A DNA stretch of 64,000 bases from an uncultured Ectothiorhodospiraceae bacterium (GTDB taxonomy: Bacteria > Pseudomonadota > Gammaproteobacteria > S012-40). The translations under genes were made by a program, and so were the position numbers. The notes under the pieces were generated by a model that was given only the letters and a program-made list of their open reading frames with translations, was not told the DNA's origin and ran no database searches. This document shows positions 2,630 to 50,610 of this stretch, piece after piece; the first letter of the stretch is position 1; each line of letters starts with the position of its first letter. The stretch covers positions 24,367 to 88,366 of the forward strand of contig CALZJE010000008.1 of assembly GCA_945787715.1 (NCBI GenBank). The letters are read 5' to 3'.

Positions 2630-3910
2630 TTAGGATGCTGATTTCAATTCGTCTTTTTTCTTAAACAAATTACGTAGCACTGGGAATATGTCCGAAACTT
2701 CAACAATTTTTCTCATCGCAAAGTTTGAAAAGCTCTGTTCTACTTTTTCATATTCATGCCATAAGCTTTGATGGTTATCAGGTGTGATTTCTACGTAAGA
2801 ATAATATTGCACAAGCGGCATTATTTTCTCTGAGAGAATTTCTCTGCATGCGGGAGAGTCATCATACCAGTTGTCACCATCCGAGGCTTGAGCAATATAA
2901 ATATTCCAGTCATTGGTCGGGTAGCGGGTTGAAGCAATCTCATGCATAAGCTTTAGCGCGCTTGAAACAACCGTGCCGCCTGTTTCACGGGAGTAAAAGA
3001 ACTCTTGCTCTGTGACTTCTTTGGCCGTGGTATGATGGCTGATAAAAACTAACTCGATTTTTTCATAATTACGAGTGAGGAAAAGGTAGAGCAGAATGAA
3101 AAAGCGTTTTGCGATCTCTTTTTTCGATTGATCCATGGAGCCTGAAACATCCATGACACAAAACATAACAGCTTGAGTCGTAGGCTTCGGTACGTCAACA
3201 TGATTGTTGTAACGTAAATCAAATTCATCAATATAGGGGACCGATTTGATTTTTTTTTCGAGGAAAACAATTTGTTCTTTAAGAGCTTCAATCTTGGCAG
3301 TGTTGCTTGAAGTGTCTTTTAGAAGTTCCTCTAAATCCTCCTGACATTCTTTCAACTCTCGCTTATAGGGCGTCCTCAGTGCAATGCGTCGTGCATGCGC
3401 GTTTCGCAGGGAGCGTACAACATTAATGTTAGCAGGGATGCCATTTGCTTTAAATCCGGCTCTTGACTTCTTTTTATCATATATGGTGGTAACCTGTGTT
3501 TTTACCAGATTAGGGAGTTCCATATCTTCAAAAAAGAAATCCATAAATTCTTCTTTGCTGATTTCGAAAACAAATTCGTCTTGACCGTCTCCCGAATCTG
3601 ATGCTTGATTCCCTTGGCCCTTTCCGCTTTTTTGTTGGGGACGCTTGATTTTATCACCAGGAACAAACTCTTTATTCCCAGGGTGGATCATTTCACGTTT
3701 CCCACCCTGGCCATGATAGATTATCGGTTCAGATATATCTTTCGCAGGTATAGAAATAGATTCTCCACTTTCTATATCGGTGATGCTGCGGTTAGATATG
3801 GCATCGGTTACCGCTTTCTTTATTTGCGATTTGTAACGTTTTAAGAAGCGCTGACGATTAACCGCACTCTTGTTCTTTGCGTTAATACGCTTGTCTATTA
3901 GTCGAGTCAT
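2630..3910 (-). CDS. yeaH: YeaH/DUF444 family protein (vWA-like)
   Basis: 426 aa with a basic N-terminus (MTRLIDKRINAKNKSAVNRQRFLKRYK...). Typical DUF444 partner located between PrkA and SpoVR. Confidence 0.85.
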   Translation of the reverse strand: MTRLIDKRINAKNKSAVNRQRFLKRYKSQIKKAVTDAISNRSITDIESGESISIPAKDISEPIIYHGQGGKREMIHPGNKEFVPGDKIKRPQQKSGKGQGNQASDSGDGQDEFVFEISKEEFMDFFFEDMELPNLVKTQVTTIYDKKKSRAGFKANGIPANINVVRSLRNAHARRIALRTPYKRELKECQEDLEELLKDTSSNTAKIEALKEQIVFLEKKIKSVPYIDEFDLRYNNHVDVPKPTTQAVMFCVMDVSGSMDQSKKEIAKRFFILLYLFLTRNYEKIELVFISHHTTAKEVTEQEFFYSRETGGTVVSSALKLMHEIASTRYPTNDWNIYIAQASDGDNWYDDSPACREILSEKIMPLVQYYSYVEITPDNHQSLWHEYEKVEQSFSNFAMRKIVEVSDIFPVLRNLFKKKDELKSAS

Positions 3911-3925
3911 ATTACAACCCTTCTA

Positions 3926-5848
3926 TTATGAAGATTTTCTAACGCGCAAATACCATTCACAAAGTAATCTGACTTGCTTAGCTGTGTAGCTTTTACCTTT
4001 CATGCGGTTGATAAAGTCTTCGTGTTTTTTCTTATCATCTGTAGATGATTTTGCATTGAACGAGATAACCGGAAGCAGTTCCTCTGTATTTGAGAACATT
4101 TTCTTCTCAATAACATTGCGAAGTTTTTCGTAACTGCTCCAAACTGGATTTTTACCTTTGTTATTTGCCCTAGCACGGAGCACAAAGTTTACGATTTCGT
4201 TACGGAAGTCTTTGGGATTGCTGATGCCCGCTGGCTTTTCAATTTTCTCAAGTTCTTCGTTTAATGAAGCACGACTAAATATTTCACCCGTATCTGGGTC
4301 GCGGTAGTCTTCATCTTGAATCCAGTAATCTGCATAAGTAACATAGCGATCAAAGATGTTTTGACCATATTCTGAGTAGGATTCAAGATATGCTGTTTGA
4401 ATTTCTTTACCAATAAATTCAACATATTGTGGAACCAGGAATCCTTTAATGGAGGATAAGTATTTTTCTTCGAGTTCCGGTGGAAACTGTTCTTGCTCTA
4501 TCTGTTGTTCCAGTACGTAGAGAAGATGAACTGGATTTGCTGCCACTTCAGAACTGTCATAATTAAAAACACGTGAAAGAATTTTAAATGCAAAACGGGT
4601 AGATAGACCATTCATGCCTTCATCGACACCAGCGTAATCGCGATATTCTTGATAGGATTTTGCATTCGGGTCAGTATCTTTCAGGTTTTCACCATCGTAT
4701 ACCCGCATTTTGGAAGTTAAGCTTGAGTTTTCTGGCTCTTTCAAACGCGATAGAACGGCAAATTCTGCCATCATTTTTAGTGTGTCAGGTGCGCATGGAG
4801 CATTAGATAAAGAACTGTTTTTTAGTAATTTTTCATATATTTTGACTTCGTCAGAAACACGTAAACAATAAGGGACTTTAACAATATAAATCCTATCTAA
4901 AAATGCTTCGTTGTTTTTGTTGTTTTTAAAAGTCACCCATTCTGATTCGTTAGAGTGAGCGAGAATGACTCCATCAAATGGAATGGCAGAAAGACCTTCA
5001 GTGCCTTTGTAATTGCCTTCTTGTGTAGCAGTTAGTAGAGGGTGAAGCACTTTGATTGGTGCTTTAAACATCTCTACAAACTCTAGTAGGCCTTGATTAG
5101 CAAGACAAAGGCCGCCAGAATAACTGTAAGCATCGGGGTCATCTTGAGAAAATTCTTCAAGTTTTCGGATATCAATTTTACCTACGAGCGACGAAATATC
5201 CTGATTATTTTCATCACCTGGTTCAGTTTTAGCGATAGCAATTTGCTCAAGAACAGAGGGACGAATTTTTACAACTTTGAATTTAGTGATGTCTCCATTG
5301 AATTCGTGAAGACGTTTTACTGCCCATGGGGACATTAGTCCGGTTAAATAGCGAGACGATATTCCGTAATCTTCTTCTAATATTTGAGCATCTTCTGAAG
5401 GGGAGAATAGACCTAACGGTGATTCATGGACAGGGGAGTCTTGTATCGCATAGAACGATTCTTTTTGCATGAGTGATTTTAGCTTTTCGGCTAATGAAGA
5501 TTTTCCTCCACCAACGGGGCCGAGAAGATAAAGAACTTGTTTCTTCTCTTCCAATCCTTGCGCGGCATGTTTAAAGTAAGAGACGATCTTTTCGATTGTG
5601 TCTTCCATTCCATGGAAATCTTTAAACGCAGGGTAGCGTTTAATTATTCGATTGGAGAACAAGCGACTGTAACGTGGGTCTGTTCTTGTATCAAAATGCT
5701 CTGGCTCTCCGATGGCTTTTAACATGCGTTCAGCAGCTGAAGCATATACATCGGGGTTGCTCTTACAAAGCTCTAAATACTCTTGGATGCTCATCGTTTC
5801 TTCTTGAGAGTCATCAAAACGTTCTTTGTATTGTCTGAATATGCTCAT
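3926..5848 (-). CDS. yeaG: PrkA family serine protein kinase (YeaG)
   Basis: 640 aa. Walker A motif LLGPVGGGKSS. Canonical PrkA N-terminus MSIFRQYKERF. Confidence 0.9.
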   Translation of the reverse strand: MSIFRQYKERFDDSQEETMSIQEYLELCKSNPDVYASAAERMLKAIGEPEHFDTRTDPRYSRLFSNRIIKRYPAFKDFHGMEDTIEKIVSYFKHAAQGLEEKKQVLYLLGPVGGGKSSLAEKLKSLMQKESFYAIQDSPVHESPLGLFSPSEDAQILEEDYGISSRYLTGLMSPWAVKRLHEFNGDITKFKVVKIRPSVLEQIAIAKTEPGDENNQDISSLVGKIDIRKLEEFSQDDPDAYSYSGGLCLANQGLLEFVEMFKAPIKVLHPLLTATQEGNYKGTEGLSAIPFDGVILAHSNESEWVTFKNNKNNEAFLDRIYIVKVPYCLRVSDEVKIYEKLLKNSSLSNAPCAPDTLKMMAEFAVLSRLKEPENSSLTSKMRVYDGENLKDTDPNAKSYQEYRDYAGVDEGMNGLSTRFAFKILSRVFNYDSSEVAANPVHLLYVLEQQIEQEQFPPELEEKYLSSIKGFLVPQYVEFIGKEIQTAYLESYSEYGQNIFDRYVTYADYWIQDEDYRDPDTGEIFSRASLNEELEKIEKPAGISNPKDFRNEIVNFVLRARANNKGKNPVWSSYEKLRNVIEKKMFSNTEELLPVISFNAKSSTDDKKKHEDFINRMKGKSYTAKQVRLLCEWYLRVRKSS

Positions 5849-6450: not shown

Positions 6451-6900
6451 GTGAAAATACCGTTGCAAATATCTACTCGAAAACTTTCACTTTCAAATGT
6501 TGCATTAAATGTAATCAGATCAAAATCGAAAAAGCTAGAAAAATTTTATGACCAAATAATCGCTTGTCGCATTATGGTTGAAGCTCCACACAAGCATAAA
6601 TCCCAAGGTTCACTCTATAATGTAAGCATCGATATTTCAGTTCCTGGTGCAGATTTGGCGGTAAAAAGAGAAGCAAACGAAGATGTTTATATAGCAATTC
6701 GTGATGCTTTTGATTCTGCTCGACGTCAATTATTACACTATAGTCGAAGAAAAAATAAAAAACATATGGTTAATTCAAGAGAGTATTCTACTACCTCTAT
6801 TTCCGTTGTTGATAAAGAGTTAGAGATGAATTTTTTGAGCAATATGGAAACTATCTCTATTTCTGATGTTGAGTACGATAAAGTAGCACACAATTATTAG
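6451..6900 (+). CDS. hpf: Ribosome hibernation promoting factor / RaiA (sigma-54 modulation protein) family
   Basis: The KLEKFYDQI and VYIAIRDAFDSARRQL motifs align with E. coli HPF (KLEQYFDRI, MYAAIDGLIDKLARQL). GTG start with GGAGG Shine-Dalgarno upstream. Confidence 0.65.
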   Translation: MKIPLQISTRKLSLSNVALNVIRSKSKKLEKFYDQIIACRIMVEAPHKHKSQGSLYNVSIDISVPGADLAVKREANEDVYIAIRDAFDSARRQLLHYSRRKNKKHMVNSREYSTTSISVVDKELEMNFLSNMETISISDVEYDKVAHNY

Positions 6901-7164
6901 TGGTTTGGTATTGAAACCAAAATAAGTTAATTGACATGTTCCCGAGGAGAGTTTCTTGCTCTCCTCAAACTTTTTGCCACAAAAACCAATCTTAGTATTT
7001 TGCAAGAAAACTCCTTTGTATAACGCAAAAGTCTCTTGTAAATTCAATATTAATTCGAAAACTCTCTTCAAGTGATTAATAACATTATCTATTCCGAATT
7101 GGTTAAAGTTAACGCATGAATTTGTCGAAATGTTAGCAAGCAAGGCAATAAATGGCAGTTCATA

Positions 7165-7893
7165 ATGGCAAGTAATCCCTATAAAAACGTGAGATCTGAT
7201 GAATCAGATGCGATGATTGTAAAACATGCACCTTTAGTAAAAAGAATTGCATACCATTTAATGGCACGACTCCCTTCCTCAGTTGTTGTTGATGACTTGA
7301 TTCAAGCTGGCATGGTGGGTTTGCTCGAAGCTTCTCGAAATTATAAACCAGATTTAGGTGCGAGTTTCGAGACATATTCAGGAATTCGTATTCGTGGTGC
7401 TATGCTAGATGAGCTACGGCGAAACGATTGGGCGCCAAAATCAGTGCATCGTAAAACACGGGAAATGGCAAAAGTTGTGCGCGAAATAGAAGCACGTACT
7501 GGTCGAGATGCGAGGGATGATGAAGTAGCGAAAAAGATGGAAATCACAATCGATGAATATTATAAAATATTACAAGACTCCAGTAACACAAGAATATATG
7601 GGTTGGAAGAGCTCGGGGTGGATGATGATGCGATCGAGCTGGGATTGACTGACCGAAATACTGGTCCGTTTGAATCAATTTCCAGCGAGAGGTTTAAAGG
7701 TAAATTAACAGAAGCGATTGCAGGCCTTCCTGAAAGAGAAAAAATGGTTGTTACTTTATATTACGACTCTGAATTGAATTTGAGAGAAATTGGCTCTGTG
7801 CTAGGTGTTAGTGAATCAAGAATCAGTCAACTGTTAAGCCAGGCGATGATTCGCTTAAGGGCTCGTATGAAAGAGTGGATTGGCAGGGAATAG
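7165..7893 (+). CDS. fliA: RNA polymerase sigma-28 factor FliA
   Basis: 242 aa. Sigma-70 regions 2, 3 and 4 are recognisable (DLIQAGMVGLLEASRNY...; LNLREIGSVLGVSESRISQL). Size and motifs are typical of FliA. Confidence 0.85.
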   Translation: MASNPYKNVRSDESDAMIVKHAPLVKRIAYHLMARLPSSVVVDDLIQAGMVGLLEASRNYKPDLGASFETYSGIRIRGAMLDELRRNDWAPKSVHRKTREMAKVVREIEARTGRDARDDEVAKKMEITIDEYYKILQDSSNTRIYGLEELGVDDDAIELGLTDRNTGPFESISSERFKGKLTEAIAGLPEREKMVVTLYYDSELNLREIGSVLGVSESRISQLLSQAMIRLRARMKEWIGRE

Positions 7894-8194
7894 AACGTTC
7901 TATTGATTATACGCCATTATCGATTTCAAATTATGTGCTTCTAATCTCTCATGTCGTATTTTGGTAAAGTCAATGAAAGTGAGAAATATATTTGCATACC
8001 AAAATAAAAAATAAATTTCTGGTGTAAAATGCAATATTCTGGTTGGAAAATTGCGTACATAAATGCCCTGAGTGTTTATGATAGCACTCACATTTTTCGA
8101 ATTAAAAAGATATTATTTTTGTAAATGATGCGTTAAAATTATTACCCTTCCTAATTTAATTTATAGAAGAATTTTGTGATTGTTTCGGTTAGAT

Positions 8195-8638
8195 ATGATT
8201 AATATACACAAAGAAAATTCTCAAGAATTATACGAAGATAATTTCTTGCGTATTCGTACACTATTGCCTGACTTACAAATATTTGAACACGTGACTTTAT
8301 CAAGCGAAGATCACTACGTTCAGCTATGTGTTGATGTGTTAGAGCGTACGCCGTATACAATGCTTCTCAGTTTTTCATCACGTTATGGTGCGCAATATCA
8401 GCATGTGCCGGAAACGAAAATTCAAGTCAGGATGTATTATGATGCGGAGGTGGCTGAAGTGTTAACCGTGCAGGGTCATCGTCATATTAGACCTCATTAT
8501 AAATATCCTAACACAAGGATGTATGTTCCTGATGAGAAAAAACAGGGCAATCATTTACTCACTGAAATGTTGCTTTTCTGTGTTAAGAATAATTATAAAA
8601 AATCCTACCTGGATCAGCCCATCGTTATGAACAATTAA
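8195..8638 (+). CDS. DUF1249 (YqiB-like) protein
   Basis: The motifs LRIRTLLPDL, VRMYYDAEVAEV and YKYPNTRMYVPDEKKQ resemble YqiB family blocks. Start taken at the first ATG (M6 of the track ORF, which begins at a TTG). Confidence 0.5.
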   Translation: MINIHKENSQELYEDNFLRIRTLLPDLQIFEHVTLSSEDHYVQLCVDVLERTPYTMLLSFSSRYGAQYQHVPETKIQVRMYYDAEVAEVLTVQGHRHIRPHYKYPNTRMYVPDEKKQGNHLLTEMLLFCVKNNYKKSYLDQPIVMNN

Positions 8639-19950: not shown

Positions 19951-20026
19951 GGGGCTATAGCTCAGCTGGGAGAGCGCTACACTGGCAGTGTAGAGGTCGG
20001 CGGTTCGATCCCGCCTAGCTCCACCA
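19951..20026 (+). tRNA. tRNA-Ala (anticodon GGC)
   Basis: 76 nt. GGGGCTATAGCTCAGCTGGGAGAGCG...CCACCA with the anticodon loop CTGGCAG. Cloverleaf is readable by eye. Confidence 0.85.
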
Positions 20027-20073
20027 GGGTTTAAAGTAAATAGCACCGACTGCAAGATTTGAAGGTTAATTAT

Positions 20074-20149
20074 GTCCCCTTCGTCTAGTGGCCTAGGACA
20101 CCGCCCTTTCACGGCGGTAACAGGGGTTCGAGTCCCCTAGGGGACGCCA
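20074..20149 (+). tRNA. tRNA-Glu (anticodon TTC), copy 1
   Basis: GTCCCCTTCGTCTAGTGGCCTAGGACACCGCCCTTTCACGGCGG...GGGGACGCCA. Near-identical to E. coli tRNA-Glu. Confidence 0.9.
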
Positions 20150-20158
20150 CTATTCTAA

Positions 20159-20186
20159 GGCTTAGCTAAGGCTAAGCCTTTTTTAA
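20159..20186 (+). terminator. Rho-independent terminator after tRNA-Glu copy 1
   Basis: GGCTTAGCTAAGGCTAAGCC followed by TTTTTT. Confidence 0.6.
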
Positions 20187-20306
20187 TGACCAAGTTTACT
20201 TGGTGTTAATAAAAGTAATACCGAATAAGTAGTAATCTCGTACATTATTTGTTCGCAAGGTAAGCAGTAAAATATTTGTAGTACACTGAGAATTGAAGGT
20301 TTATAT

Positions 20307-20382
20307 GTCCCCTTCGTCTAGTGGCCTAGGACACCGCCCTTTCACGGCGGTAACAGGGGTTCGAGTCCCCTAGGGGACGCCA
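20307..20382 (+). tRNA. tRNA-Glu (anticodon TTC), copy 2
   Basis: Identical 76-nt sequence to copy 1. The leader is also duplicated (GAAGGTTnAnnATGTCCCC). Confidence 0.9.
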
Positions 20383-20391
20383 TACAAATCA

Positions 20392-20421
20392 AAGGTTTAG
20401 AAGAGATTCTAAACCTTTTTT
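20392..20421 (+). terminator. Rho-independent terminator after tRNA-Glu copy 2
   Basis: AGGTTTAG-aagagatt-CTAAACCT followed by TTTTTTTT. Confidence 0.6.
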
Positions 20422-20600
20422 TTATGCACCTAAATCCATAATTAGCCATTTCGCAGCACAGATTTAGCACATCTAGCCAACCTTTAAACAGGGCATTGCG
20501 CTCATCGCTAATTATTATTTCTTAACACCCGATATAATATATAACGATTATCGTCATATGTTGCATTGCGTTATATAATGGGTAGCGTTATAGTTCGATA

Positions 20601-20882
20601 ATGTTAAGGTCTTTTAAATCAAGGGAAACAGAGAAAATCTGGAATGGCGATGTTTCCCGAAAATTGCCAACGGACATCCAGCAAATTGCACGTCGGAAGT
20701 TGCGCATGCTTAATAATGCAATCGAATTGAAAGATCTAAGAATTCCCCCCGCCAATCGCTTGGAAGCATTGAAAGGGGAAAGGAAAGGTCAATACAGCAT
20801 CCGGATTAATCAGCAGTGGCGAATATGTTTTAATTGGAAAAATGGTGATGTTCTGGATGTTGAAATTGTAGATTATCATTGA
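20601..20882 (+). CDS. higB: HigB-type toxin (RelE/ParE superfamily, 'plasmid maintenance system killer')
   Basis: 93 aa. Motifs KIWNGDVSRKLP...RLEALKGERKGQYSIRINQQWRICF are typical of HigB. TATAAT-like box and short repeats lie upstream. Confidence 0.8.
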   Translation: MLRSFKSRETEKIWNGDVSRKLPTDIQQIARRKLRMLNNAIELKDLRIPPANRLEALKGERKGQYSIRINQQWRICFNWKNGDVLDVEIVDYH

Positions 20883-20891
20883 GGATTAAAT

Positions 20892-21185
20892 ATGAAAAAA
20901 CTCGAAAATATTCATCCAGGCGAAATACTGCTAGAAGAGTTCCTTATCCCAATGGAAATTAGTCAAAACCGACTTGCTCGGGAAATTAGTGTGCCTCCAC
21001 GTAGAATTAATGAGATTGTTCTTGGAAAAAGAGGGGTCACAGCAGATACCGCTTTACGCCTAGCGCGTTATTTTGGAACAACCGAAAAATTTTGGTTAGG
21101 ACTGCAAGATGACTATGATTTAGAGGAGGCAAGGATTGTGTTAGGCTCCGTTTTGGATAAGGAAATTAAGCCACATGCTGCTTAA
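20892..21185 (+). CDS. higA: HigA-type antitoxin (XRE-family HTH)
   Basis: 97 aa. HPGEILLEEFL...ISQNRLAREISVPPRRINEIVLGKRGVTADTALRLARYFGTTEKFW is the canonical HigA HTH. Starts 9 nt after higB. Confidence 0.8.
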   Translation: MKKLENIHPGEILLEEFLIPMEISQNRLAREISVPPRRINEIVLGKRGVTADTALRLARYFGTTEKFWLGLQDDYDLEEARIVLGSVLDKEIKPHAA

Positions 21186-21389: not shown

Positions 21390-21878
21390 TTAATCCCTGA
21401 CCAGCCGCACAAACCACTCAGCTTGCTTATTGCTTAAATAGCTTTCCCCATGTAGGAAAAATACTATCATGGCATGGTATTTTGATGTGGAGTCTTCAGT
21501 TATGGTCCAGAACCCGGTAGATACTGTATTTGGAAATTTAGATTGATTTATTGCGGGTTGAAAACAACGTTTCTCGGTAATGCTTTCCAGTTCTTTCAGC
21601 GTTGGTAAACGCCAATTTTTTTTGCCGGCAAAGCCTTCATAATTATTAAAATAATTAGCGGCGAGAATTGCTTTTTGCCATTCCATTCGTTTGCTTTGCC
21701 CTATGCACATGGAATTTTCCCAAGTCATTCCATATGCACATTTCATCCAGGTTAGGCTTGTTTTTTCATCAAATATTGTTCCGTTACCGATATCTTTATA
21801 GTTTGTGTTTTCTGGAATACATTCCGCATTCAGGTTGGCTGTAATTAAGCTCAGGGATAAAACAATAAAGCGTATCAT
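21390..21878 (-). CDS. Secreted DUF1566 (Lcl C-terminal domain-like) protein
   Basis: N-terminal signal peptide (MIRFIVLSLSLITANLNA). WRLPTLKELESI motif is characteristic of DUF1566. Confidence 0.55.
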   Translation of the reverse strand: MIRFIVLSLSLITANLNAECIPENTNYKDIGNGTIFDEKTSLTWMKCAYGMTWENSMCIGQSKRMEWQKAILAANYFNNYEGFAGKKNWRLPTLKELESITEKRCFQPAINQSKFPNTVSTGFWTITEDSTSKYHAMIVFFLHGESYLSNKQAEWFVRLVRD

Positions 21879-23057: not shown

Positions 23058-24644
23058 CTACCTTTCACTCAACTTCCCAAACTTAGCGGGAGGTTTACGA
23101 TGAAGAGTCGCTTGCTCATATGCATATGCATATTGAAAAAGTTTTCCTTCAAAAAAAGGTTTCCCCAAAAATTGCAGTCCAGTGGGTAATCCATCTGATG
23201 TGAATCCCATGGGTACTGTGATAGCGGGTTGGCCTGTGTGTGGTGCAATCTTGGGGCTGTTGTTGCCATGCGGTGATTCATCGTCGCCAATATTTCTTGG
23301 TGGGTTTGACCAGGAGGGGTAGATGATTGCATCAATACGTTGATCTTGCATGGCTTGCATTACAGCGTCTTTTAATACCTTTCTTCTTGGATCGTTTTCC
23401 ACATCAACGCAAGGTGGTTCTTGTCGGTCTGGGGTGGTGTCTACATTCATCGCCCACAACATGGCGCCGTTGATTTTTTCATTAAACAATTTTTTGTCAT
23501 AGACTTCCTTGAGATTTTTTACTGGGGCTTTGTCACCTAATGTTTTTAAATATTCATCGATGTCGTATCTAAAGCGACTACAGAACCCGGTTGCTTTTGA
23601 GAGCTTTTCAAAATTTGGAACGGTAAAGTTATCGATAATTATTGCACCTTGATTTGATAGGTCTTCGATAGCTGATTCCATCAATACGATTGTTTCAGGA
23701 TCTGCGTCGTCTGACATGAATAATTCTCGCATAACGCCAAGACGAGCATTGATAAGTCCACGTTTATCCAGATAACGATGGTAGCTTTTCTCAATTTTAC
23801 CTTTGGATGCTTCTGTTCCTGGATCAGCTCGATCATATCCCGCAATCACTTCAAATACTCTTGCAGTATCTTTTACATTGCGCATCATTGGCCCAGCGAC
23901 ATCGCGATTATAGAGGAGTGGTATGACACCATCGCGACTAATTGCCCCAATAGTTGCTCGTATGCCCACTAAAGAGAGATGGGAAGCTGGGCCGCGAATA
24001 GAGTTGCCGGTATCGGTTCCCATACCGATAATGCCATAGTTAGCTGCGACGGCAGATGCAGTTCCACCGCTGGAACCCGCGGGTACGCGATTTTGATTGT
24101 AGGCGTTTCGTGTTTCACCGTGAGTGGAGCTGATGGTTTTATATGGGCTGAATGCCCACTCGGCCATATTGGATTTTGCTACGATTATTGCTCCCGCTTC
24201 GCGCAATTTTTTTACTACAAATGCATCATCAGGAGGAATGGAATCTTTTAGTGCAATGGAGCCAGCCTCGGTCGGCATATCTGCGGTATCAAAGTTGTCC
24301 TTTAATATAATCGGTATGCAATGTAGTTTTCTCAACTTGCCGGTTTGTTGATACTCTTTATCAAGCTCTCGTGCTTTAAATTTGGACTTACGATTAATTT
24401 CGGTGATGGCGTTGAGTTTGTTGTAGTGCTCATAAGTTAGGATGCGCTCGATATAGCGCTCAACGAGTTGAAAACAGGTGATTTGGTTAGAAATTATCCC
24501 ATTATGAACATCATCAATAGTAGCTTCAATGATAGTAAAATCATCACTAAGTTTTTTGGGGAATAGTCCGCAGCCACTAATAAGTTGAATACATAATGCA
24601 ACAATTATAATGCGACAAATAATATAAAGCATTTGATCCTTCAA
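23058..24644 (-). CDS. Amidase-signature family amidase, predicted lipoprotein
   Basis: GGSSGGTASAVAANYGIIGMGTDTGNSIRGPAS amidase signature. N-terminal lipobox LISGC. Confidence 0.8.
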   Translation of the reverse strand: MKDQMLYIICRIIIVALCIQLISGCGLFPKKLSDDFTIIEATIDDVHNGIISNQITCFQLVERYIERILTYEHYNKLNAITEINRKSKFKARELDKEYQQTGKLRKLHCIPIILKDNFDTADMPTEAGSIALKDSIPPDDAFVVKKLREAGAIIVAKSNMAEWAFSPYKTISSTHGETRNAYNQNRVPAGSSGGTASAVAANYGIIGMGTDTGNSIRGPASHLSLVGIRATIGAISRDGVIPLLYNRDVAGPMMRNVKDTARVFEVIAGYDRADPGTEASKGKIEKSYHRYLDKRGLINARLGVMRELFMSDDADPETIVLMESAIEDLSNQGAIIIDNFTVPNFEKLSKATGFCSRFRYDIDEYLKTLGDKAPVKNLKEVYDKKLFNEKINGAMLWAMNVDTTPDRQEPPCVDVENDPRRKVLKDAVMQAMQDQRIDAIIYPSWSNPPRNIGDDESPHGNNSPKIAPHTGQPAITVPMGFTSDGLPTGLQFLGKPFFEGKLFQYAYAYEQATLHRKPPAKFGKLSER

Positions 24645-24785
24645 ATAGAATTATTTTTGGAAAATGAAAAAGCTTATTTTATTGTTGTTATATGAATACG
24701 CTATTTATGATTAGCTGTTTTAATTAGAACCAGAGAGTCTAATGCTATCATGTGACATTGCAAGCCTTTTGAGTGGATTTTATTC

Positions 24786-25088
24786 TTATTTCGGGTCAAT
24801 ATTGGATGGAGGAATAATTTTTTCGCTTTTCCCATTGAGTTGAAACACGAATGAGAGCACGACGGCAACAGCCTGATAGAGATTGGAGGGAATTTCTTCA
24901 TCAATTTCGATTCGTGAAAGTAATTTAACTAGCTCGCTATCTTGATAGAGCGTAACGCCATGCTCTTCTGCTATCTCAACGATTTTTTCTGCAATAATGC
25001 CGTCACCTTTTGCGACTACCTTGGGCGCGTTTTCAATATTGTATTTTAACGCGACAGCTTGAAGATTTTTTTTATCATCGTCGCTCAT
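24786..25088 (-). CDS. FlhB C-terminal domain-like small protein (EscU/YscU/FlhB-C family paralogue)
   Basis: 100 aa. AVALKYNIENAPKVVAKGDGIIAEKIVEIAEEHGVTLYQDSELVKLL aligns with the FlhB cytoplasmic C-terminal domain. Overlaps the upstream gene by 4 nt. Confidence 0.7.
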   Translation of the reverse strand: MSDDDKKNLQAVALKYNIENAPKVVAKGDGIIAEKIVEIAEEHGVTLYQDSELVKLLSRIEIDEEIPSNLYQAVAVVLSFVFQLNGKSEKIIPPSNIDPK

Positions 25089-26755
25089 GCTTTCAAATCC
25101 ACAAGATTACTAGAGTTAATTGTTTCATGGTTGTGAGAGAGAGGTGGTTTACCTTGGTGGCAAGCGATGTTTTCTGATTTAAATCCTGATTTTTGAAGGT
25201 TTTCTTGTAGCTTGTTAACATTTTGGCGGGTTATTTCATAGGTATCGTCTCTCTCAGCCCATAAAACCACGCCAATGTTTTCGCTAATCAAGGTGATTCG
25301 TGCATGTATAGGGCCGAGTGATTCCAGTTCAATCGCTAAATTTACCGTCACGACGGCATCAGCTTCCTGCTCAGTCGCTTGTTCTTTTTCGTAACGCATT
25401 TGTATGAGATGTATATCTTCACCATCTTGTGCTGGAATTTCCATGCTCCAGGCAAGTTTCCCATTATCTTGTTCTTGTAAGGTGTTGAGTTGATGAAGTT
25501 GAGTGCGGGAAATTGCGGAATCCACAGATTTAACAAGATTGTCAATCATATCTACCAGGCTTGATATGCGAGGTGTAACATTCGATTGTTTTGGATCTGT
25601 TTTAGTCGCAACAAAATCAAGTGCATGTTTAATATTACCGAATTCTTTATTGTAGGTAGGAACTGTTTTGCTAATTTGAGGCGTGTTTGTAATTGGCTGT
25701 TGAAGTAGTGATTGTACTAGTGGTTTTTGAGTAGTTACCTTAGTTAACTCTTTGGGAATTATTTTGTGCTGCTGGCTGATAACTTTTATTGCTTGCTGCG
25801 TTTGTTCAATCTTAATTTGTTGAGCAATGTTTTCAACAGATTTTGTTGTTGCTTGTGTAGTATTTATTGTTTTATTTTCAGAATTAGTTTTTATCTGTAA
25901 CGCCGCTTCTTGTTTTACTTGCTCTGTATTTTTAATAGTGTTGGTTTGTATTACTTGATTATCTAAAGGTGTTTTCGCTTGTGTATTTGAAATACTTGCT
26001 TTAATTAGAGGTTGTTGCGGGGGCAGTTTATTAGTCTGGGGCTGTTGCGTTAAACTGCTCTGAAGTTTTATTGTTTGTTGTGTCGAGCTGTTCTGTAATT
26101 TTGTTTCCTGTTGAATAGGGTTGTTTTGAAGTTTTGTTGTTTGCTGAGTTGTAGACTGTTCTTTACTCAATGCATTTTTAAAATTTATGAGTAACGACTT
26201 CAAATCTTTTTTAATTATCGAAGCTGTGTTATTTGTAATAATGTCCTTTAAGTTTTTTTCCAATAATAAACCTGAATTTTTAATGGCTGATTTGACGCCT
26301 TCAGCCGTTGATAACTGTTTGGTTGTTGGAAGTTGTTTTATAAAGCTCCTTGAAACTTGAACCAATTTTTGCGGTATTTGTAATGGTTTGGCGTGTTTGA
26401 TGACATTCTGGATCTGTTGAATAGCGAAACCAATCGGTTTTTGTTGAGGTAACGTTTGCCGCATCGCTTGCTCGGTCACTAGTGAGCTGATGAGCTTTTC
26501 GGGCAGTTGAAGTGTAATTTGTTTTCCGGTTTGAGCAACAAGGAGTTGCAATATTTGGTCGGTTTTCAGGGGCAGCGTCGTTTTTGCATTCAGTAGTGTG
26601 TTATTGATATTTAAAGTGACTTCGCCAGATGCTGAGTTAAGTGAAATGACTTTAGCGAGTAACTGCTGGCCTACGCTCAGGTTATTGGCAGGCATCTTCC
26701 CTGAAGAGACCGTGAGCGTTTGTAAGGCAGCGATTTGTGTTGGCGTGAGTTCCAT
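25085..26755 (-). CDS. FliK-like hook-length control protein homologue (Gln/Thr-rich and repetitive)
   Basis: 556 aa. Long Q/T-rich low-complexity middle with KLQ-type repeats. The C-terminal block (AWSMEIPAQDGEDIHLIQMRYEKEQ...VNLAIELESLGPIHARITL) resembles the FliK Flg_hook domain. Confidence 0.6.
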   Translation of the reverse strand: MELTPTQIAALQTLTVSSGKMPANNLSVGQQLLAKVISLNSASGEVTLNINNTLLNAKTTLPLKTDQILQLLVAQTGKQITLQLPEKLISSLVTEQAMRQTLPQQKPIGFAIQQIQNVIKHAKPLQIPQKLVQVSRSFIKQLPTTKQLSTAEGVKSAIKNSGLLLEKNLKDIITNNTASIIKKDLKSLLINFKNALSKEQSTTQQTTKLQNNPIQQETKLQNSSTQQTIKLQSSLTQQPQTNKLPPQQPLIKASISNTQAKTPLDNQVIQTNTIKNTEQVKQEAALQIKTNSENKTINTTQATTKSVENIAQQIKIEQTQQAIKVISQQHKIIPKELTKVTTQKPLVQSLLQQPITNTPQISKTVPTYNKEFGNIKHALDFVATKTDPKQSNVTPRISSLVDMIDNLVKSVDSAISRTQLHQLNTLQEQDNGKLAWSMEIPAQDGEDIHLIQMRYEKEQATEQEADAVVTVNLAIELESLGPIHARITLISENIGVVLWAERDDTYEITRQNVNKLQENLQKSGFKSENIACHQGKPPLSHNHETINSSNLVDLKA

Positions 26756-26791
26756 ATGAGTTTAGATTTATTACCCAACCAATAAGGAAAG

Positions 26792-26799
26792 TTATCGGC
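26792..26799 (-). promoter_or_regulatory. Candidate sigma-28 (FliA) -10 box GCCGATAA upstream of the FliK-like gene
   Basis: Perfect 8/8 match to the sigma-28 -10 consensus on the minus strand, 36 nt upstream of the ATG at 26755. The -35 match is weak (TTAAACAA versus TAAAGTTT). Confidence 0.4.
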
Positions 26800-26814
26800 C
26801 AATAAAAAAGTTGT

Positions 26815-27411
26815 TTAAACTTCAATTTCTGCAATCAGCGCGCCAAACGAGAAGGTTGTGTAGCGTTCAACTTTGATATTATTTGACCAATAATCAAAAG
26901 GTAAGCCAGCTTTTTCTTTCAAGTGGCGTAAAAAGTTTTTTGTATCCGGTATGCTCTCCCATACACTGGGTAAAAATGTGCCTCTTTGATAATCTTCAGA
27001 CAATATCAAACCATCAGTGCTGGGTCTGATTTTTTGTAGTAAATCATCCTCATTTTTGAATGAGATTGGTTCAGGCTCCGATAATATGGAAATATGAATA
27101 TCGAGATTACTAAATTCAACGCTTGAGAGTTTCGGAAAACGAGGATCGTTAAATGCGGCAGAGTATGCGTTTTCTGCTACATCTTCAGCGAGTGGTCGGG
27201 ATGCTAGTAATCGACCAATACAGCCTCGTAGTTGCTTATTAATCTCTAATGTGACAAAGGTTGCTCGAATGTCTGAAAGTGTGGGTGGATAGTGACTAAG
27301 TTCAATAAATAATGGATTATTATTTTTTAGGCCTGACTCAATGGATTTCGCTGCAATAGATAAAAGCAGAGTCTGTTCTTCCTGTGAATATGGGATATCA
27401 ATAGAAGGCAT
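26815..27411 (-). CDS. AMMECR1 domain protein (AmmeMemoRadiSam system protein A)
   Basis: LRGCIG motif. About 198 aa from the ATG at 27411. The longer track ORF (start 27507) would overlap the MEMO1 gene by 110 nt. Confidence 0.8.
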   Translation of the reverse strand: MPSIDIPYSQEEQTLLLSIAAKSIESGLKNNNPLFIELSHYPPTLSDIRATFVTLEINKQLRGCIGRLLASRPLAEDVAENAYSAAFNDPRFPKLSSVEFSNLDIHISILSEPEPISFKNEDDLLQKIRPSTDGLILSEDYQRGTFLPSVWESIPDTKNFLRHLKEKAGLPFDYWSNNIKVERYTTFSFGALIAEIEV

Positions 27412-28183
27412 ACGCACCGTATCCAACAACTCTGTTTTTATCACCTTCGGTGTCTCCAGAATTTCTAAGATCAAGGGTTTTACAATGCAAATTATGTTTT
27501 TTTGCAAATTTTAAAAGCCCATTAACTGGGTAAGTGCCACATGCCATCTCTCCTGTAATTGTGCCAAACTGGAGTTGCTCTATGGCAGTTGTTGTTTGTT
27601 GGTCAATTTCTTGTGCTGTTTTATAGTCATGAAAATGACTTAAATCAGAGCTGATAACAAAAAAAGTTGCTGGATCATCCCAAAATAAATCTAATACCTC
27701 CTCTACAGCGCTTGAAGTCATATCACCTACGGCTATCGGTACCAGGCTGAACTCATCTAATACAGTTTGTAGAAAAGGGAGGTGGACTTCTAAGCTATGT
27801 TCGTCCTGATGTGCCATATCGCTTAGTTGAACATTAGGATTTTTTAAGAGTGCTTGCACTGCATCCGTATCAATTGCTATATCACCTAAAGGGGTCCGGA
27901 AATAGTCTGCACTACTGACTGCGCAACCATGAACTGCTACGCGATGTGTTGGTCCAAGTAATACGACACGACGAATCTTTTCTCTTAATGGCTCTAATAG
28001 TTTATAAGCACTTGCAGCAATCTCACCTGAATAGATGTACCCAGCATGAGGAACAATTATCGCACGTGGCGTGATATTTCTAGCGGGCGCATTGTTGAGT
28101 ATATCATTCAACAACTCTTGCAAAACTTTTGCATTATTGGGATAAAAAAGCCCGGCAACGGCAGGTTCTCTTATAGTAGGCAT
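27398..28183 (-). CDS. MEMO1 family protein (AmmeMemoRadiSam system protein B)
   Basis: 261 aa. AGLFYP...PHAGYIYSG...LGPTH motifs are typical of MEMO1/extradiol-dioxygenase-like proteins. Confidence 0.8.
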   Translation of the reverse strand: MPTIREPAVAGLFYPNNAKVLQELLNDILNNAPARNITPRAIIVPHAGYIYSGEIAASAYKLLEPLREKIRRVVLLGPTHRVAVHGCAVSSADYFRTPLGDIAIDTDAVQALLKNPNVQLSDMAHQDEHSLEVHLPFLQTVLDEFSLVPIAVGDMTSSAVEEVLDLFWDDPATFFVISSDLSHFHDYKTAQEIDQQTTTAIEQLQFGTITGEMACGTYPVNGLLKFAKKHNLHCKTLDLRNSGDTEGDKNRVVGYGAYAFY

Positions 28184-28243
28184 TGTAATGTTCCCTTTTA
28201 AATACTACATATAAGTATATGGCTAATGTGTAATTTATCAATG

Positions 28244-28251
28244 TTATCGGC
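28244..28251 (-). promoter_or_regulatory. Candidate sigma-28 (FliA) -10 box GCCGATAA upstream of the MEMO1-family gene
   Basis: Perfect 8/8 GCCGATAA on the minus strand, 60 nt upstream of the ATG at 28183. The -35 is weak (GAATTCAT) and overlaps the start of the divergent radical SAM gene. Confidence 0.35.
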
Positions 28252-28262
28252 GAGGTGGTGAG

Positions 28263-29357
28263 ATGAATTCTGAATATCGGGCAACAAAGTATTGGCATAA
28301 GCTTGATGATGGAAGAATACAGTGTGATTTATGTCCGCGATATTGCAAGCTGCACGAAGGCCAGCAGGGATTATGTTTTGTTCGTGCAAACTTTGACGAT
28401 CAAATAGTGAGTACGACTTATGGTCGTTCCAGCGGGTATTGTATTGATCCTATCGAAAAAAAGCCGTTAAATCATTTTTTACCTGGCACACCCGTCCTCT
28501 CATTCGGCACGGCAGGGTGTAATTTAGCGTGTAAATTTTGTCAAAACTGGGATATGAGTAAGTCGCGTGAAATGGATACGCTTGCTGATCAGGCTTCACC
28601 AGAATTAATTGCGCAAGTTGCCGAACAGACCGGCTGCCGAAGTGTTGCGTATACCTACAATGACCCTGTCATATTTTTAGAATATGCTGTTGATACCGCA
28701 ATCGCATGTGCGGAAAAAAATATTAAATCTGTTGCAGTGACTGCGGGTTATATTTGTGAAGAACCCCGCAAAGAATTTTTTAAACACATGGATGCTGCCA
28801 ATATTGACCTAAAGGCGTTTACTGAACGTTTTTACCATAAAATCACTGGTTCACATCTCGGCAATATATTGGATACTTTGCAATATGTAAAACACGAAAC
28901 TAATGTGTGGTTAGAGATAACGAATTTATTAATTCCAGGAGAAAATGATTCCCCCGAAGAGTTGGAAAAAATGACCCAATGGGTTGTCGAAAAACTCGGG
29001 CCTGATGTACCCATGCACTTCACAGCATTTCATCCTGATTGGAAGATGCTAGATTATCCTCCAACCCCCATGAAAACACTCACCCAAGCAAGAGAAATCG
29101 CGATAAAGAACGGTGTTCGATATGTATATACGGGTAATGTTCACGATAAAAAAGGCGAGAGTACATATTGTCACTCATGTGGTGAAAGATTGATTGGTAG
29201 AGACTGGTATGTGTTGAGTGAGTGGAATATGGATAATAATGGCCATTGTCAAAAATGTGGGACTAAATGTAGCGGTGTATTTGAGAATCAAATGGGTACA
29301 TGGGGAGCAAAGCGGCAACCTATCAGATTGGCTGATTTCAGAGAGATTGTAGTTTAA
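28263..29357 (+). CDS. AmmeMemoRadiSam system radical SAM enzyme (PFL-activase-like)
   Basis: CNLACKFC is a CxxxCxxC radical SAM cluster motif. An additional N-terminal Cys cluster (CDLCPRYC) is present. GAGGTGG Shine-Dalgarno before the ATG. Confidence 0.85.
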   Translation: MNSEYRATKYWHKLDDGRIQCDLCPRYCKLHEGQQGLCFVRANFDDQIVSTTYGRSSGYCIDPIEKKPLNHFLPGTPVLSFGTAGCNLACKFCQNWDMSKSREMDTLADQASPELIAQVAEQTGCRSVAYTYNDPVIFLEYAVDTAIACAEKNIKSVAVTAGYICEEPRKEFFKHMDAANIDLKAFTERFYHKITGSHLGNILDTLQYVKHETNVWLEITNLLIPGENDSPEELEKMTQWVVEKLGPDVPMHFTAFHPDWKMLDYPPTPMKTLTQAREIAIKNGVRYVYTGNVHDKKGESTYCHSCGERLIGRDWYVLSEWNMDNNGHCQKCGTKCSGVFENQMGTWGAKRQPIRLADFREIVV

Positions 29358-46413: not shown

Positions 46414-46635
46414 TCGTTATTTGTGCAAAAACAAAGCAAATATTGATTGTGTTCATTATATTCAATCCGTAAAATTGAGTTTCTCTGGCGATATTGCCAT
46501 TTCCTTGAATGGATAAATAATATCTCTAAAATCCTGGAGGATTCAGGATGAGAATACTGAAAATATAAGCTGGAATCCCAATTATTCATCTCTAAACGGC
46601 AATGCCCGAAAGCTGTGTATAAAATAAATATTATT

Positions 46636-49600
46636 ATGAAAATCAAAACAATAAACTTGAGTGCCACACTATTCATCGCATTGATTTCGCTGATAAGCTG
46701 TAGCAGCGAAAACAATAAAGTTCCAGCAAAGAACGACAACCCCGCGTTTTCAAGCAAAAAAAATAACTTTATTCCTGCTGGAATTTCTGTAACAACAAAG
46801 AATGGTGTGGCAGAACTTTCTTGGCCAGAGTTTCCGGATGCAACGGCTTATCAATTATATTGGTCTACCTCTGCTGTAACTGATATTAAAACAGCGGAAA
46901 AAGTTAAACTTAGCTCACCGTTTTATCGTCATGAAAATATTATAAATGATGTTAATTACTATTATACCTATTCCGTAGTGATAAATGGCGTTGAAAGTTT
47001 ATACTCAAATGAAGTTACAATAACAGCGCTTTCTCCTCCAGTGGATGCTCCTACAGACGTGAAAATTATTCCTGGTGATGAGCGATTAACATTAATTTGG
47101 ACAGCGTCTAATAATAGTAATCTACCCAAAACAGATTTACTTTATCATGTGTATTGGAATACATCGGGTAATGTCACAAAAGATGATGAAAAATTAGTAG
47201 CTTCTGCGTCACCTGCTGTGCATCTTGGGCTTAACAATGGGGTGCAATATTACTATCGAATAGCCGCCGTTATCGATAGCCTCGAAGGAGGGTTGTCCAA
47301 TGAAGTTTCTTCTGCTCCACATACCCCGACGCTATTCGCACCTCTCAACGTTGTTGTTACAGCGGGTGTAAGTGAAAATCTGCTTGAGTGGCAAGCCGTC
47401 GAATTTGCAGACTCTTATTCGGTATATTGGAATACTTCAGGTGAAGTAGGATTGTCTGATCAGTTCTTTGAAGTATCAGAGCCAGTATTTACCCAAAAAA
47501 ACTTACGTAATGGTAATACATATTTTTATCGAGTAATGGCCCATAACTCATCTTTCAATAGTTCATTTTCAAGAGAAGTATCAGCCAGGCCAGCGACAGC
47601 GTTACCAGGCACCCCGCAAAGAATTTCCGTGGTTGCTGGCGTAGAGAAAGCTACAATAAATTGGAGTGCGGTGGAGAACGCCATACTTTATAACTTATAT
47701 TGGTATACCAATGGCGCCGTGACCAACGTTAATCCCAATGTGATCTCGCCTTTTAATCATAATAATTTGTCCTCGGATTTGGAAGTCAATTATCGAATAT
47801 CAGCCGTTGTAAATGGTGTTGAAGGTTTACCCTCCGCGCAAGTAACGGTTAAACCATTGCCACAGCCTGCTGCCGCACCTGCTGGAGTTGTTATTACCAA
47901 TTCTCAATCTCAAGGCGTTTTACTTACTTGGGAGCCGGATGAATCAGCAATTGCATATAACCTATATTGGAATACTACAGGAGACGTTACTACTGAAGAT
48001 GAAGTGATAAAAAATGTAACATCTCCTTACGCACATGTTGACGCAGAAAATGGCAAAACATATTTCTACATGATAACTTCCGTCAATAATGAAGGTGAAA
48101 GTTTGCCATCTAATGTCATTAAAGTAACCTTGGCGCCGAATGCCCCAAATGATATTAGGGCAGAAATAAATGAGAACGCTATCGGGCTTCAATGGGATGA
48201 GGTTAGTGGAGCAAAAAATTATCATCTTTATTGGTCGACGTCACCAGATATTGCCATTAAAGAACGTAATCATATTCCTACGGTCAACCCTGGATTTACC
48301 CATATTGACCTTGCTTATGGTCAAAAGTATTACTACATCATCACATCTGAAAACGAAGCGGGAGAGAGTGTAGGTTCCCAAGAGCTTGTTGTTAAGACTG
48401 ATGAAAAAACAATAATACCAGTAGCAGCGCCGACAGATATATCTGTATCTGTAGTGGCTAATGACATAGTGCTGAATTGGTCTGAAGTTCTCTATGCTAC
48501 ATCATATAAAATGTATCTCTCACCAAGTCCTATTATTTCCATTGATGGCTTGGATGGTATTCCAATAGAAGCTACTGAATATGTTCATCAATCGCCTGTT
48601 GTTAATCAACAATATTATTATCGCATTAGTAGTATCGGTTCTTCAGGAGATAGTACTGTTTCGGAGCAAGTGACAGCAGTTATCGAAGATAAATTAATAT
48701 CTGATGCATTGAAATTGATACCTGATCAAACATTCCGAAATTGCATTAGTTCAATGGCTTCTGAACATCAATGGATCAATGCCAGTGAAGTTTCATATTT
48801 GGAATGCAGCTCTGGTGAAGGTGGCTTTATTCAAAGTCTTGATGGTATTCATCAATTCCTATTCGTGACGGAGTTTACCTTTTTTGGGGGCAAAATACAA
48901 AATCTCGATGCTTTTTCGGGACTTTCATTTCCTGCATTAACACGTATCCAATTGGTGAATAATGGCATTGAGAATATTACTGGTCTTGGGGAGATAATAG
49001 CCCCTAATCTTTCTTATTTAATATTAGATCAAAATAAAATATCAGACTTGAATCCACTTTCTTCACTATCAAGTTTAATTGAACTATCTGTGTCTCAAAA
49101 CCAGGTGGTTGATGTCTCTCCAGCATCAAATTTAACAGCGCTTCGGAAGTTGGATTTCCATGCTAATAAGATAGGCGGAGTTAATATAGGCAATCTAAAT
49201 TCTTTGCTTCCATTAACATCGAGCGATACGTTTGAATATTTTAATGTCGATCAGAATATAGGTGTTGATTGTGCGGAATTAGAAATGGTACTTCATTCTC
49301 TTGGTGGCATAAAGATACCTGATTCTCCAATAAACGATATTAACTGTTCGGTAACTGAGAGCTCTCTACCGTTATCGCCAAAAAACATAGTCGCTAGAGC
49401 TGGAGCTGATTTTGTTCAGTTTCTTTGGGATGAATCATTAGGAGCAACTTCCTACACTGTATATTGGTCAAATGAATTCATTGGTTCTAGTTCTGGTTCT
49501 GGTGCTGAGGTGTTTGAGTTTCCTGAAGTTACACATGATTTTGTTCATCAACAACTGCAGAGTGGTTTGCCTCACTATTATCAAATATCAGCGAGTAATG

Positions 49601-50610
49601 CGAATGGTGAAAGTATCCAAACAAGTGAAATTTCTCTGACACCACTGCCTGTGTTGTTATCAGAAATGACAGTGCCAGATCCTGGCTTTCAAGAATGTGT
49701 CAACGATATTATCGATACAGGACCGTGGGTATATGCGCATGAAGTGGAAGTATTAAATTGCAGCCTTAGCAGTAATACATCGATTAATGATCTAACCGGA
49801 ATTCATCTTTTTTCAGGTGTTAGAAGTATCGATTTATCAGGGAAGGGTTTAGAGACTCTGGATGGATTTGACTTTTCTTACTTTCCTGACCTTGTTTCAT
49901 TGAATTTATATGGTAACAGTATTTATAGCGCTGAAGCACTTTCAACATCTATTGTGCCGCAGTTAAAGGATCTCGATATAAGTTCAAATAATCAACTACT
50001 AAGTGTAAAGCCACTAAATAGCCTGACTTCATTAACGTCGCTTAAACTAGTTTGGAATAGCTTAGTTGATTTACGAGAAATACCAGACTTGGTGAATCTT
50101 GAAGACCTCGATATATCTTCAATGTCATTTTTTAGTGGAATTAGTTTAAATATCGATGTGCTGAGTAACTATTCAAAATTGGTGGAATTGGATATGTCAT
50201 TTAATGTCATTACTGATTATTCAAGCTTGTCTGATTTAACCAACTTAGAACGATTGCTTCTTATAAATAATAAAATAGATGATATAAGTTTTATCACAAT
50301 ACCTTCATCGGTTCTTGAACTGAATTTATCTAATAATGAAATTAGTGATGTTACGCCATTATCAGGAATGACTCAGTTACAGTTTCTCAATCTTAATCGG
50401 AATGTTATTGGCAATACACCGGAAGAGAATATTATCAAATTAAACGCACTAACTTCTGCGTCTGAAATCTCCTTGATTGGGAATAGAAGTATGGAATGTA
50501 ATGAGCTTATACAATTAATATCGGATTTAGAAGTTGGTGTAGTAAAATTTAGTGATGGAAGTAGAGTTGTACCTGAACAAAACCTAGATTGCACTATTTA
50601 TAATCCCTAA
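46636..50610 (+). CDS. Giant lipoprotein: about 9 FN3-like repeats followed by internalin-type leucine-rich repeats
   Basis: Lipobox LISCS. Start taken at the ATG at 46636. Repeating modules of about 95 aa have a YxLYWxTS core. C-terminal half has 22-aa LRRs (LSYLILDQNKISDLNPLSSLSSLIELSVSQNQVVDVSP...). Confidence 0.65.
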   Translation: MKIKTINLSATLFIALISLISCSSENNKVPAKNDNPAFSSKKNNFIPAGISVTTKNGVAELSWPEFPDATAYQLYWSTSAVTDIKTAEKVKLSSPFYRHENIINDVNYYYTYSVVINGVESLYSNEVTITALSPPVDAPTDVKIIPGDERLTLIWTASNNSNLPKTDLLYHVYWNTSGNVTKDDEKLVASASPAVHLGLNNGVQYYYRIAAVIDSLEGGLSNEVSSAPHTPTLFAPLNVVVTAGVSENLLEWQAVEFADSYSVYWNTSGEVGLSDQFFEVSEPVFTQKNLRNGNTYFYRVMAHNSSFNSSFSREVSARPATALPGTPQRISVVAGVEKATINWSAVENAILYNLYWYTNGAVTNVNPNVISPFNHNNLSSDLEVNYRISAVVNGVEGLPSAQVTVKPLPQPAAAPAGVVITNSQSQGVLLTWEPDESAIAYNLYWNTTGDVTTEDEVIKNVTSPYAHVDAENGKTYFYMITSVNNEGESLPSNVIKVTLAPNAPNDIRAEINENAIGLQWDEVSGAKNYHLYWSTSPDIAIKERNHIPTVNPGFTHIDLAYGQKYYYIITSENEAGESVGSQELVVKTDEKTIIPVAAPTDISVSVVANDIVLNWSEVLYATSYKMYLSPSPIISIDGLDGIPIEATEYVHQSPVVNQQYYYRISSIGSSGDSTVSEQVTAVIEDKLISDALKLIPDQTFRNCISSMASEHQWINASEVSYLECSSGEGGFIQSLDGIHQFLFVTEFTFFGGKIQNLDAFSGLSFPALTRIQLVNNGIENITGLGEIIAPNLSYLILDQNKISDLNPLSSLSSLIELSVSQNQVVDVSPASNLTALRKLDFHANKIGGVNIGNLNSLLPLTSSDTFEYFNVDQNIGVDCAELEMVLHSLGGIKIPDSPINDINCSVTESSLPLSPKNIVARAGADFVQFLWDESLGATSYTVYWSNEFIGSSSGSGAEVFEFPEVTHDFVHQQLQSGLPHYYQISASNANGESIQTSEISLTPLPVLLSEMTVPDPGFQECVNDIIDTGPWVYAHEVEVLNCSLSSNTSINDLTGIHLFSGVRSIDLSGKGLETLDGFDFSYFPDLVSLNLYGNSIYSAEALSTSIVPQLKDLDISSNNQLLSVKPLNSLTSLTSLKLVWNSLVDLREIPDLVNLEDLDISSMSFFSGISLNIDVLSNYSKLVELDMSFNVITDYSSLSDLTNLERLLLINNKIDDISFITIPSSVLELNLSNNEISDVTPLSGMTQLQFLNLNRNVIGNTPEENIIKLNALTSASEISLIGNRSMECNELIQLISDLEVGVVKFSDGSRVVPEQNLDCTIYNP

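Follow-up and report, generated by a model that had tools for sequence, protein, structure and literature searches.

The class 3 sigma-28 promoter of Escherichia coli and Salmonella has the form TAAAGTTT-N11-GCCGATAA, the sigma-D promoter of Bacillus subtilis has the form TAAA-N15-GCCGATAT, and a sigma-28 promoter usually has its transcription start 7-10 nt beyond the -10 box. In enteric bacteria fliK is a class 2 gene located in the fliFGHIJK operon and is not a target of sigma-28. Pseudomonas putida has an operon of uncharacterised function that consists of PP_4328 (renamed fliK2) and PP_4329 (flhX) (bioRxiv 10.1101/2021.08.29.457346; PMC5026340). Its promoter, PfliK2, matches the FliA consensus, is stimulated by ectopic FliA and was assigned to the FliA class (bioRxiv 10.1101/2021.08.29.457346); in strain KT2440 its sequence is TCAAG...GCCGTTTA (PMC5026340 S4 Fig). 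In a fliA mutant of Legionella pneumophila, expression of lpp2634 was down to 0.23 and that of lpp2635 (flhB') to 0.30 (PMC5655016 Table 1, after Albert-Weissenberger 2010). The product of lpp2634 was termed 'similar to hypothetical proteins' (PMC5655016). That lpp2634 is FliK-like we infer from gene order only.

The stretch of DNA analysed here, to which we refer as the window (64 kb), carries a gene arrangement that fits this known kind (fliK2-flhX), the two being likened by domain content, gene order and promoter type. The genes used in the comparison are as follows.

25085-26755, minus strand: FliK-like gene, 556 aa, with a Flg_hook domain at residues 458-538 (Pfam PF02120, 54.5 bits, cutoff 29.8)
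24786-25088, minus strand: flhX (flhB'), 100 aa, FlhB C-terminal domain only (Bac_export_2, 72 bits, profile positions 262-335 of 335)
26815-27507, minus strand: ORF of AMMECR1, AmmeMemoRadiSam system protein A (TIGR04335, 200 bits)
27398-28183, minus strand: Memo, AmmeMemoRadiSam system protein B (TIGR04336, 277 bits)
7165-7893, plus strand: fliA (NCBIfam NF005413, 302.9 bits, cutoff 201; solved FliA structures in the PDB, 275 and 194 bits)

The FliK-like protein has an M-E-L start that is invariant among 30 homologs, and the stop codon of its gene is overlapped by the start of flhX by 4 nt (ATGA). Against TIGR00789 (flhB_rel) FlhX scores 89 bits, under the cutoff of 117, and its N-terminus (AVALKY...) begins just past the position expected for the NPTH cleavage site. 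The pairing of the two genes was kept in all related loci, also in distant ones. A preliminary description of this DNA had named the first gene FliK-like, which is correct as far as the FliK domain is concerned; the gene is half of a fliK-like/flhX pair, however, and not necessarily the canonical fliK. The same description had placed FliA at 7165-7893, and the profile and structure matches listed above agree with this. The radical SAM partner gene is divergent from Memo-AMMECR1, and the true start of AMMECR1 is probably further downstream than the start of its ORF.

Apart from fliA and the fliK-like/flhX pair, no flagellar gene was found in the window. The fliA gene is unlinked to other flagellar genes: in the region 6451-8638 this orphan follows an hpf-like gene (Ribosomal_S30AE) and precedes a DUF1249 gene, and the usual flhF-fleN or mot/che neighbours are missing. 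The genes prkA-DUF444-spoVR (1112-5848) are located on the opposite strand from fliA.

The elements that were considered in the gap between AMMECR1 and the FliK-like gene are as follows.

26799-26792, minus strand: sigma-28 -10 element GCCGATAA, found by direct reading and exact pattern match, 8/8 including the CGA core
26817-26814, minus strand: TAAA as candidate -35 element, overlapping the TAA stop of AMMECR1 and separated from the -10 box by 14 nt

On the minus strand the gap region reads ...GAAGTTTAAACAACTTTTTTATTGGCCGATAACTTTCCTTATTGGTTGGGTAATAAATCTAAACTCAT-ATG. The AMMECR1-family ORF ends with its TAA at 26817-26815, the gap from there to the FliK-like ATG (26755) is 59 nt, and the distance from the end of the GCCGATAA box to this ATG, on the same strand, is 36 nt. 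A perfect -10 box with exactly these positions relative to the ATG and the AMMECR1 stop had been reported in the preliminary description, and all coordinates were confirmed. It had further called the -35 element poor. This underestimates the site, which has TAAA at N14 and is the sole 12/12 site in 64 kb.

Compared to the enteric class 3 promoters, the site has the identical -10 octamer and a TAAA upstream, and relatives of the window carry the sigma-D form GCCGATAT. It is unlike the textbook sigma-28 promoter in that its spacer is one base shorter, with TAAA at N14 rather than N15, and in that the 3' half of the -35 octamer is mismatched, the four bases after TAAA being CAAC versus GTTT in TAAAGTTT. 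As in P. putida fliK2-flhX, a protein with a FliK C-terminal domain is followed by a protein that has only the FlhB C-terminal domain, behind a sequence that matches the FliA promoter consensus. PfliK2 differs in having a weaker -10 and a Pseudomonas-type -35, whereas the window site has a perfect -10 and TAAA at N14. The P. putida-type pair is usually found at the edge of a flagellar cluster, whereas the pair in the window follows AmmeMemoRadiSam genes and has no flagellar neighbours. In the case of L. pneumophila lpp2634-lpp2635, the likeness consists of flhB' together with its upstream neighbour, both of which are FliA-dependent in Legionella and stand behind a predicted promoter in the window. 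No Pseudomonas or Legionella fliK2-flhX was found among the 120 matches listed for each of the FlhX single-sequence and profile searches, in a family having 7,953 matches.

As in Legionella, the window also encodes an Lcl_C-domain protein (21390-21878, minus strand). Two further proteins of the surface or host-interaction type are a 1331-aa LRR/fn3 protein (46615-50610, plus strand) and an autotransporter (50684-52315, minus strand). This set of translated products suggests a Legionella-like lifestyle of the window organism.

We consider that TAAA-N14-GCCGATAA (26817-26792, minus strand) is a functional FliA (sigma-28) promoter of the fliK-like/flhX pair, and we assign to this reading of the sequence a probability of roughly 0.7. 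It had been proposed in the preliminary description, and it now draws support from the exact -10 box, its uniqueness, its orientation, its conservation, the presence of a canonical FliA and the published FliA-dependent gene pairs. When both strands of the 64 kb were scanned for TAAA-N14-16-GCCGATAA, the only 12/12 site was the one before the fliK-like gene, compared to 0.05 sites expected in first-order Markov random sequences. This site occupies the sole gap of the window that precedes a flagellar-type gene.

The octamer by itself is not enriched. It occurs three times in the window versus 1.9 expected, and at least three copies were obtained in 27 of 100 shuffles; one of the copies lies in a PfkB-family ORF and one is unconserved. 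Such counts are what one would expect if the box before the fliK-like gene were a chance match, or a conserved site for a function other than sigma-28 (as the site of another DNA-binding protein, or as relic coding sequence). We regard this as very unlikely, since an exact match within the 59-nt gap has a chance of only ~8e-4 (~52 start positions at ~1.5e-5 per position and strand), and the chance is lower still when TAAA at N14-16 is included. The earlier statement that an exact octamer is improbable by chance in the gap holds for this position, but it does not extend to the window as a whole.

The other matches in the window can be described briefly. Nine weaker sites (7/8 with 3/4) are each within an ORF or without a downstream gene, and their count is at the level of chance. 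The third copy of GCCGATAA, at 53646-53639, is within the PfkB-family ORF and was rejected as a chance match. The same was concluded for GACGATAA with TAAC-N14 at 20555-20548, an intergenic site in a tRNA and toxin-antitoxin region that has no minus-strand gene downstream. This region (19951-21185) comprises a tRNA-Ala/Glu/Glu cluster followed by a pair of genes of 93 aa and 97 aa, which are of HigB/HigA toxin-antitoxin type by the look of their translations. The second copy of GCCGATAA, at 28251-28244 on the minus strand, is located 60 nt before the Memo ATG; as it lacks a TAAA at N14-16 and is kept in the nearest relative only, it was not accepted as a promoter.

In order to describe conservation we refer to the related loci by number. 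Relatives of the window proteins are metagenomic or MAG sequences only, labelled as Gammaproteobacteria. The order in which the radical SAM gene is divergent from Memo-AMMECR1-fliK-like-flhX was kept in 11 loci, which are the window itself (WIN), L001/L007, L006, L008, L010, L011, L012, L014, L020, L021 and L033, and among which FliK identity goes from 81% down to about 37-40%. In 10 of the 11, the motif GCCGATA[AT] occurs in the stretch from AMMECR1 to the fliK-like gene; the exception is L008, having ACCGATAC at the homologous box. In the deeper loci the gap between the two genes is unalignable apart from the box and varies in length from 52 to 223 nt, and in L020, L021 and L033 the box is 85-201 nt from the ATG.

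The box has different relations to the upstream gene. It is downstream of the stop codon in WIN, L001, L006 and L010, it overlaps the TAG stop in L014, and in L011, L012, L020 and L021 it coincides with the last codons, CCG ATA TAA. The latter four loci, taken on their own, would favor a chance or relic coding origin of the box, and so would the -35 region, in which TAAA is missing from L010, L011, L014, L020 and L021, the deeper of the syntenic loci. In L001/L006 this region reads TAAC-N14. However, since the box was kept in coding as well as non-coding contexts, constraint at the level of DNA is a better explanation than constraint at the level of protein. The conserved core is also exactly the sigma-28/sigma-D -10 consensus, FliA control of the fliK-like/flhX pair is on record in other organisms, and the region has neither an Rfam match nor a stable structure; these points argue against a chance match or a site of some other function and are consistent with a FliA promoter.

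When the 230 nt before the gene were compared, the 8-mer common to the most loci was GCCGATAT with at most one mismatch, present in 11/11 loci as opposed to a peak of 6-9 for shuffles, a control that overstates the significance because the upstream sequences share ancestry. L008 enters this count through GCAGATAT in a coding region; the homologous box of L008, ACCGATAC, has two mismatches. The second copy of GCCGATAA (28251-28244) serves as an internal control. It is intact in L001 only, reads ACCGATAA in L006 and is missing in L008, L010, L011, L014, L020 and L021; it was thus lost beyond the closest relatives while the nearby sigma-70 promoter was kept. This copy abuts the -35 hexamer of that promoter.

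Outside the syntenic loci, the metagenomic locus L027 has TAAA-N14-GCCGATAT before its fliK-like gene, and L026, of a different upstream context, has TAAA-N15-GACGATAT. Not all FliK-like/FlhX pairs are preceded by a sigma-28 box, which is missing in L030 and L032. In L027 (480-3750), and also in L026, the fliK-like gene is divergent from genes for MCP, STAS-domain and REC-SpoIIE(PP2C)-HATPase_c_2 proteins, an architecture that resembles the Pseudomonas HsbA/HsbR partner-switch acting on FlgM. In locus L031 (2457-4279) the gene order resembles that of Bacillales, with lepB-type peptidase, GTPase, rnhB, X, flhX, sucCD, dprA and topA. The 515-aa gene preceding flhX there is without a Pfam match, and a weak sigma-D-like CAAA-N15-GACGATAA is found 35 nt upstream of it.

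The fliK-like gene could also be transcribed from further upstream, where the following element was found.

28241-28214, minus strand: sigma-70-type promoter TTGATA-N16-TATACT of Memo-AMMECR1, the best site in the region (10/12)

This promoter sits in the 72-105 nt that separate the Memo-AMMECR1 genes from the divergent radical SAM gene, and both of its hexamers were kept in all syntenic loci. From its sequence, it is a likely source of read-through into fliK-like/flhX. The minus-strand scan for a GC-rich hairpin followed by a U-run revealed no intrinsic terminator between AMMECR1 and the fliK-like gene. A hairpin at the AMMECR1 stop codon was considered as terminator or attenuator and rejected, its folding energy of -1.8 kcal/mol (z = -0.16) being no better than that of shuffles; the stop-codon hairpins of WIN, L001 and L006 range from -1.8 to -3.6 kcal/mol and are inside the shuffle range. 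A search of Rfam with positions 24500-28500 gave no structured-RNA match at E <= 1.

The fliK-like/flhX pair might then depend entirely on the Memo-AMMECR1 sigma-70 transcript, at whose end it would lie, with GCCGATAA unused by FliA. The co-oriented genes, the gap of just 59 nt without an intrinsic terminator, the hairpin at shuffle level, the strong conservation of the sigma-70 promoter and the gene order kept in 11 loci are all in line with this. It leaves unexplained, however, why GCCGATA[AT] was retained as one element in diverged gaps, whether coding or non-coding, and the box is also present in L027, which lacks the Memo-AMMECR1 genes. Moreover, read-through and an internal promoter can coexist. 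We therefore find exclusive read-through unlikely. As there is no terminator upstream, the sigma-28 promoter is probably internal and additive to sigma-70 read-through.

A different dedicated promoter would be given by the following motif.

26845-26831, minus strand: tentative sigma-54-like motif TGGCGCGCTGATTGC in the AMMECR1 3' end, 9/10, with GG and GC present

The pattern scored was TGGCAC-N5-TTGC, with GG at -24 and GC at -12. If TGGCGCGCTGATTGC were the promoter of fliK-like/flhX, its 9/10 match, the obligatory GG and GC, the correct orientation and the distance of 75 nt to the ATG would all be accounted for. PfliK, the promoter of the canonical fliK in the polar flagellate P. putida, matches the sigma-54 consensus as well (bioRxiv 10.1101/2021.08.29.457346), and sister loci carry a motif of this class, TGGCAYGAWTYTRGC, directly before the same gene. 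The number of 9/10 sites in the window is nevertheless at chance (two versus 2.3 expected), and no sigma-54 activator gene is among the annotated ORFs of the window. The motif is retained in L001 and L006. It is inside coding sequence, however, with its key bases set by the conserved codons for F-G-A-x-I-A, such that coding constraint explains the retention equally well. It is weakened in L008 (TGGTGC), and it is missing in the deeper syntenic loci L010, L011, L014, L020, L021 and L033, all of which retain the sigma-28 box. Taken together, we deem a sigma-54 promoter at TGGCGCGCTGATTGC quite unlikely. The only two 9/10 sites of the window (26831-26845 and 54556-54570, both on the minus strand) each precede the start of a gene on their own strand by 75-80 nt, the former that of the fliK-like gene and the latter that of the PfkB-family ORF at 53337-54476. 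Both are thus placed as a promoter would be, although their number is at chance.

Under the preferred reading, a FliA promoter at 26817-26792, FliA-RNA polymerase would recognise TAAA-N14-GCCGATAA, and transcription would start ~7-10 nt past the -10 box, near 26785-26782, as expected from the usual sigma-28 geometry. The predicted 5' UTR would have a length of ~27-30 nt and no obvious Shine-Dalgarno sequence. The resulting bicistronic mRNA would encode the FliK-like protein (26755-25085) and the translationally coupled flhX/flhB' (25088-24786). The promoter would be an internal one at the end of the Memo-AMMECR1 genes, its -35 overlapping the AMMECR1 stop codon, and late FliA-dependent expression would presumably be added to constitutive transcription that reads through from the promoter of sigma-70 type at 28241-28214.

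The sister loci L002/L016, L013, L017, L019 and L022 have a conserved sigma-54-type TGGCAYGAWTYTRGC, the end of which is only 12-16 nt away from the fliK-like ATG. Being so near to the invariant M-E-L start, it would give rise to an mRNA with almost no leader. Similar to P. putida PfliK, L002, L013, L017, L019 and L022 resemble the window in having a dedicated alternative-sigma promoter directly upstream of a FliK-domain gene, and in these sister loci the FliK-domain gene is also followed by flhX. These promoters differ in being of the -24/-12 GG/GC class, in place of which the window lineage has the sigma-28 box. In L002 and L013, GCCGATA[CT] overlaps the -12 element of TGGCAYGAWTYTRGC.

Judging from these upstream sequences, the alternative sigma factor used for the fliK-like/flhX pair seems to differ from lineage to lineage. 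One may speculate, although we hold this to be rather doubtful, that a promoter-class switch took place, with sigma-54 serving fliK-like/flhX in the sister lineages and sigma-28 in the AMMECR1-linked lineage that includes the window. If the FliK-like protein were the only hook-length controller of the cell, its dependence on sigma-28 would put hook-length control downstream of the very checkpoint that it triggers. In that case the system would be primed by basal sigma-70 read-through, with positive feedback coming from FliA.

The current understanding of sigma-28 promoters is not changed by the window site. In this uncultured lineage of Gammaproteobacteria, for which metagenomes are the only source, FliA and the operon structure described above would be the likely regulator and layout for FliK-like/FlhX. 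The contrast between sigma-28 in this lineage and sigma-54 in its sister loci may provide a small natural example of promoter-class turnover. For the gene pair itself, which is uncharacterised, phylogenetic footprinting would extend a FliA dependence whose experimental record is limited to P. putida and L. pneumophila. This agreement makes it more plausible that distant Gammaproteobacteria have fliK2-flhX as a late (FliA-class) flagellar module.
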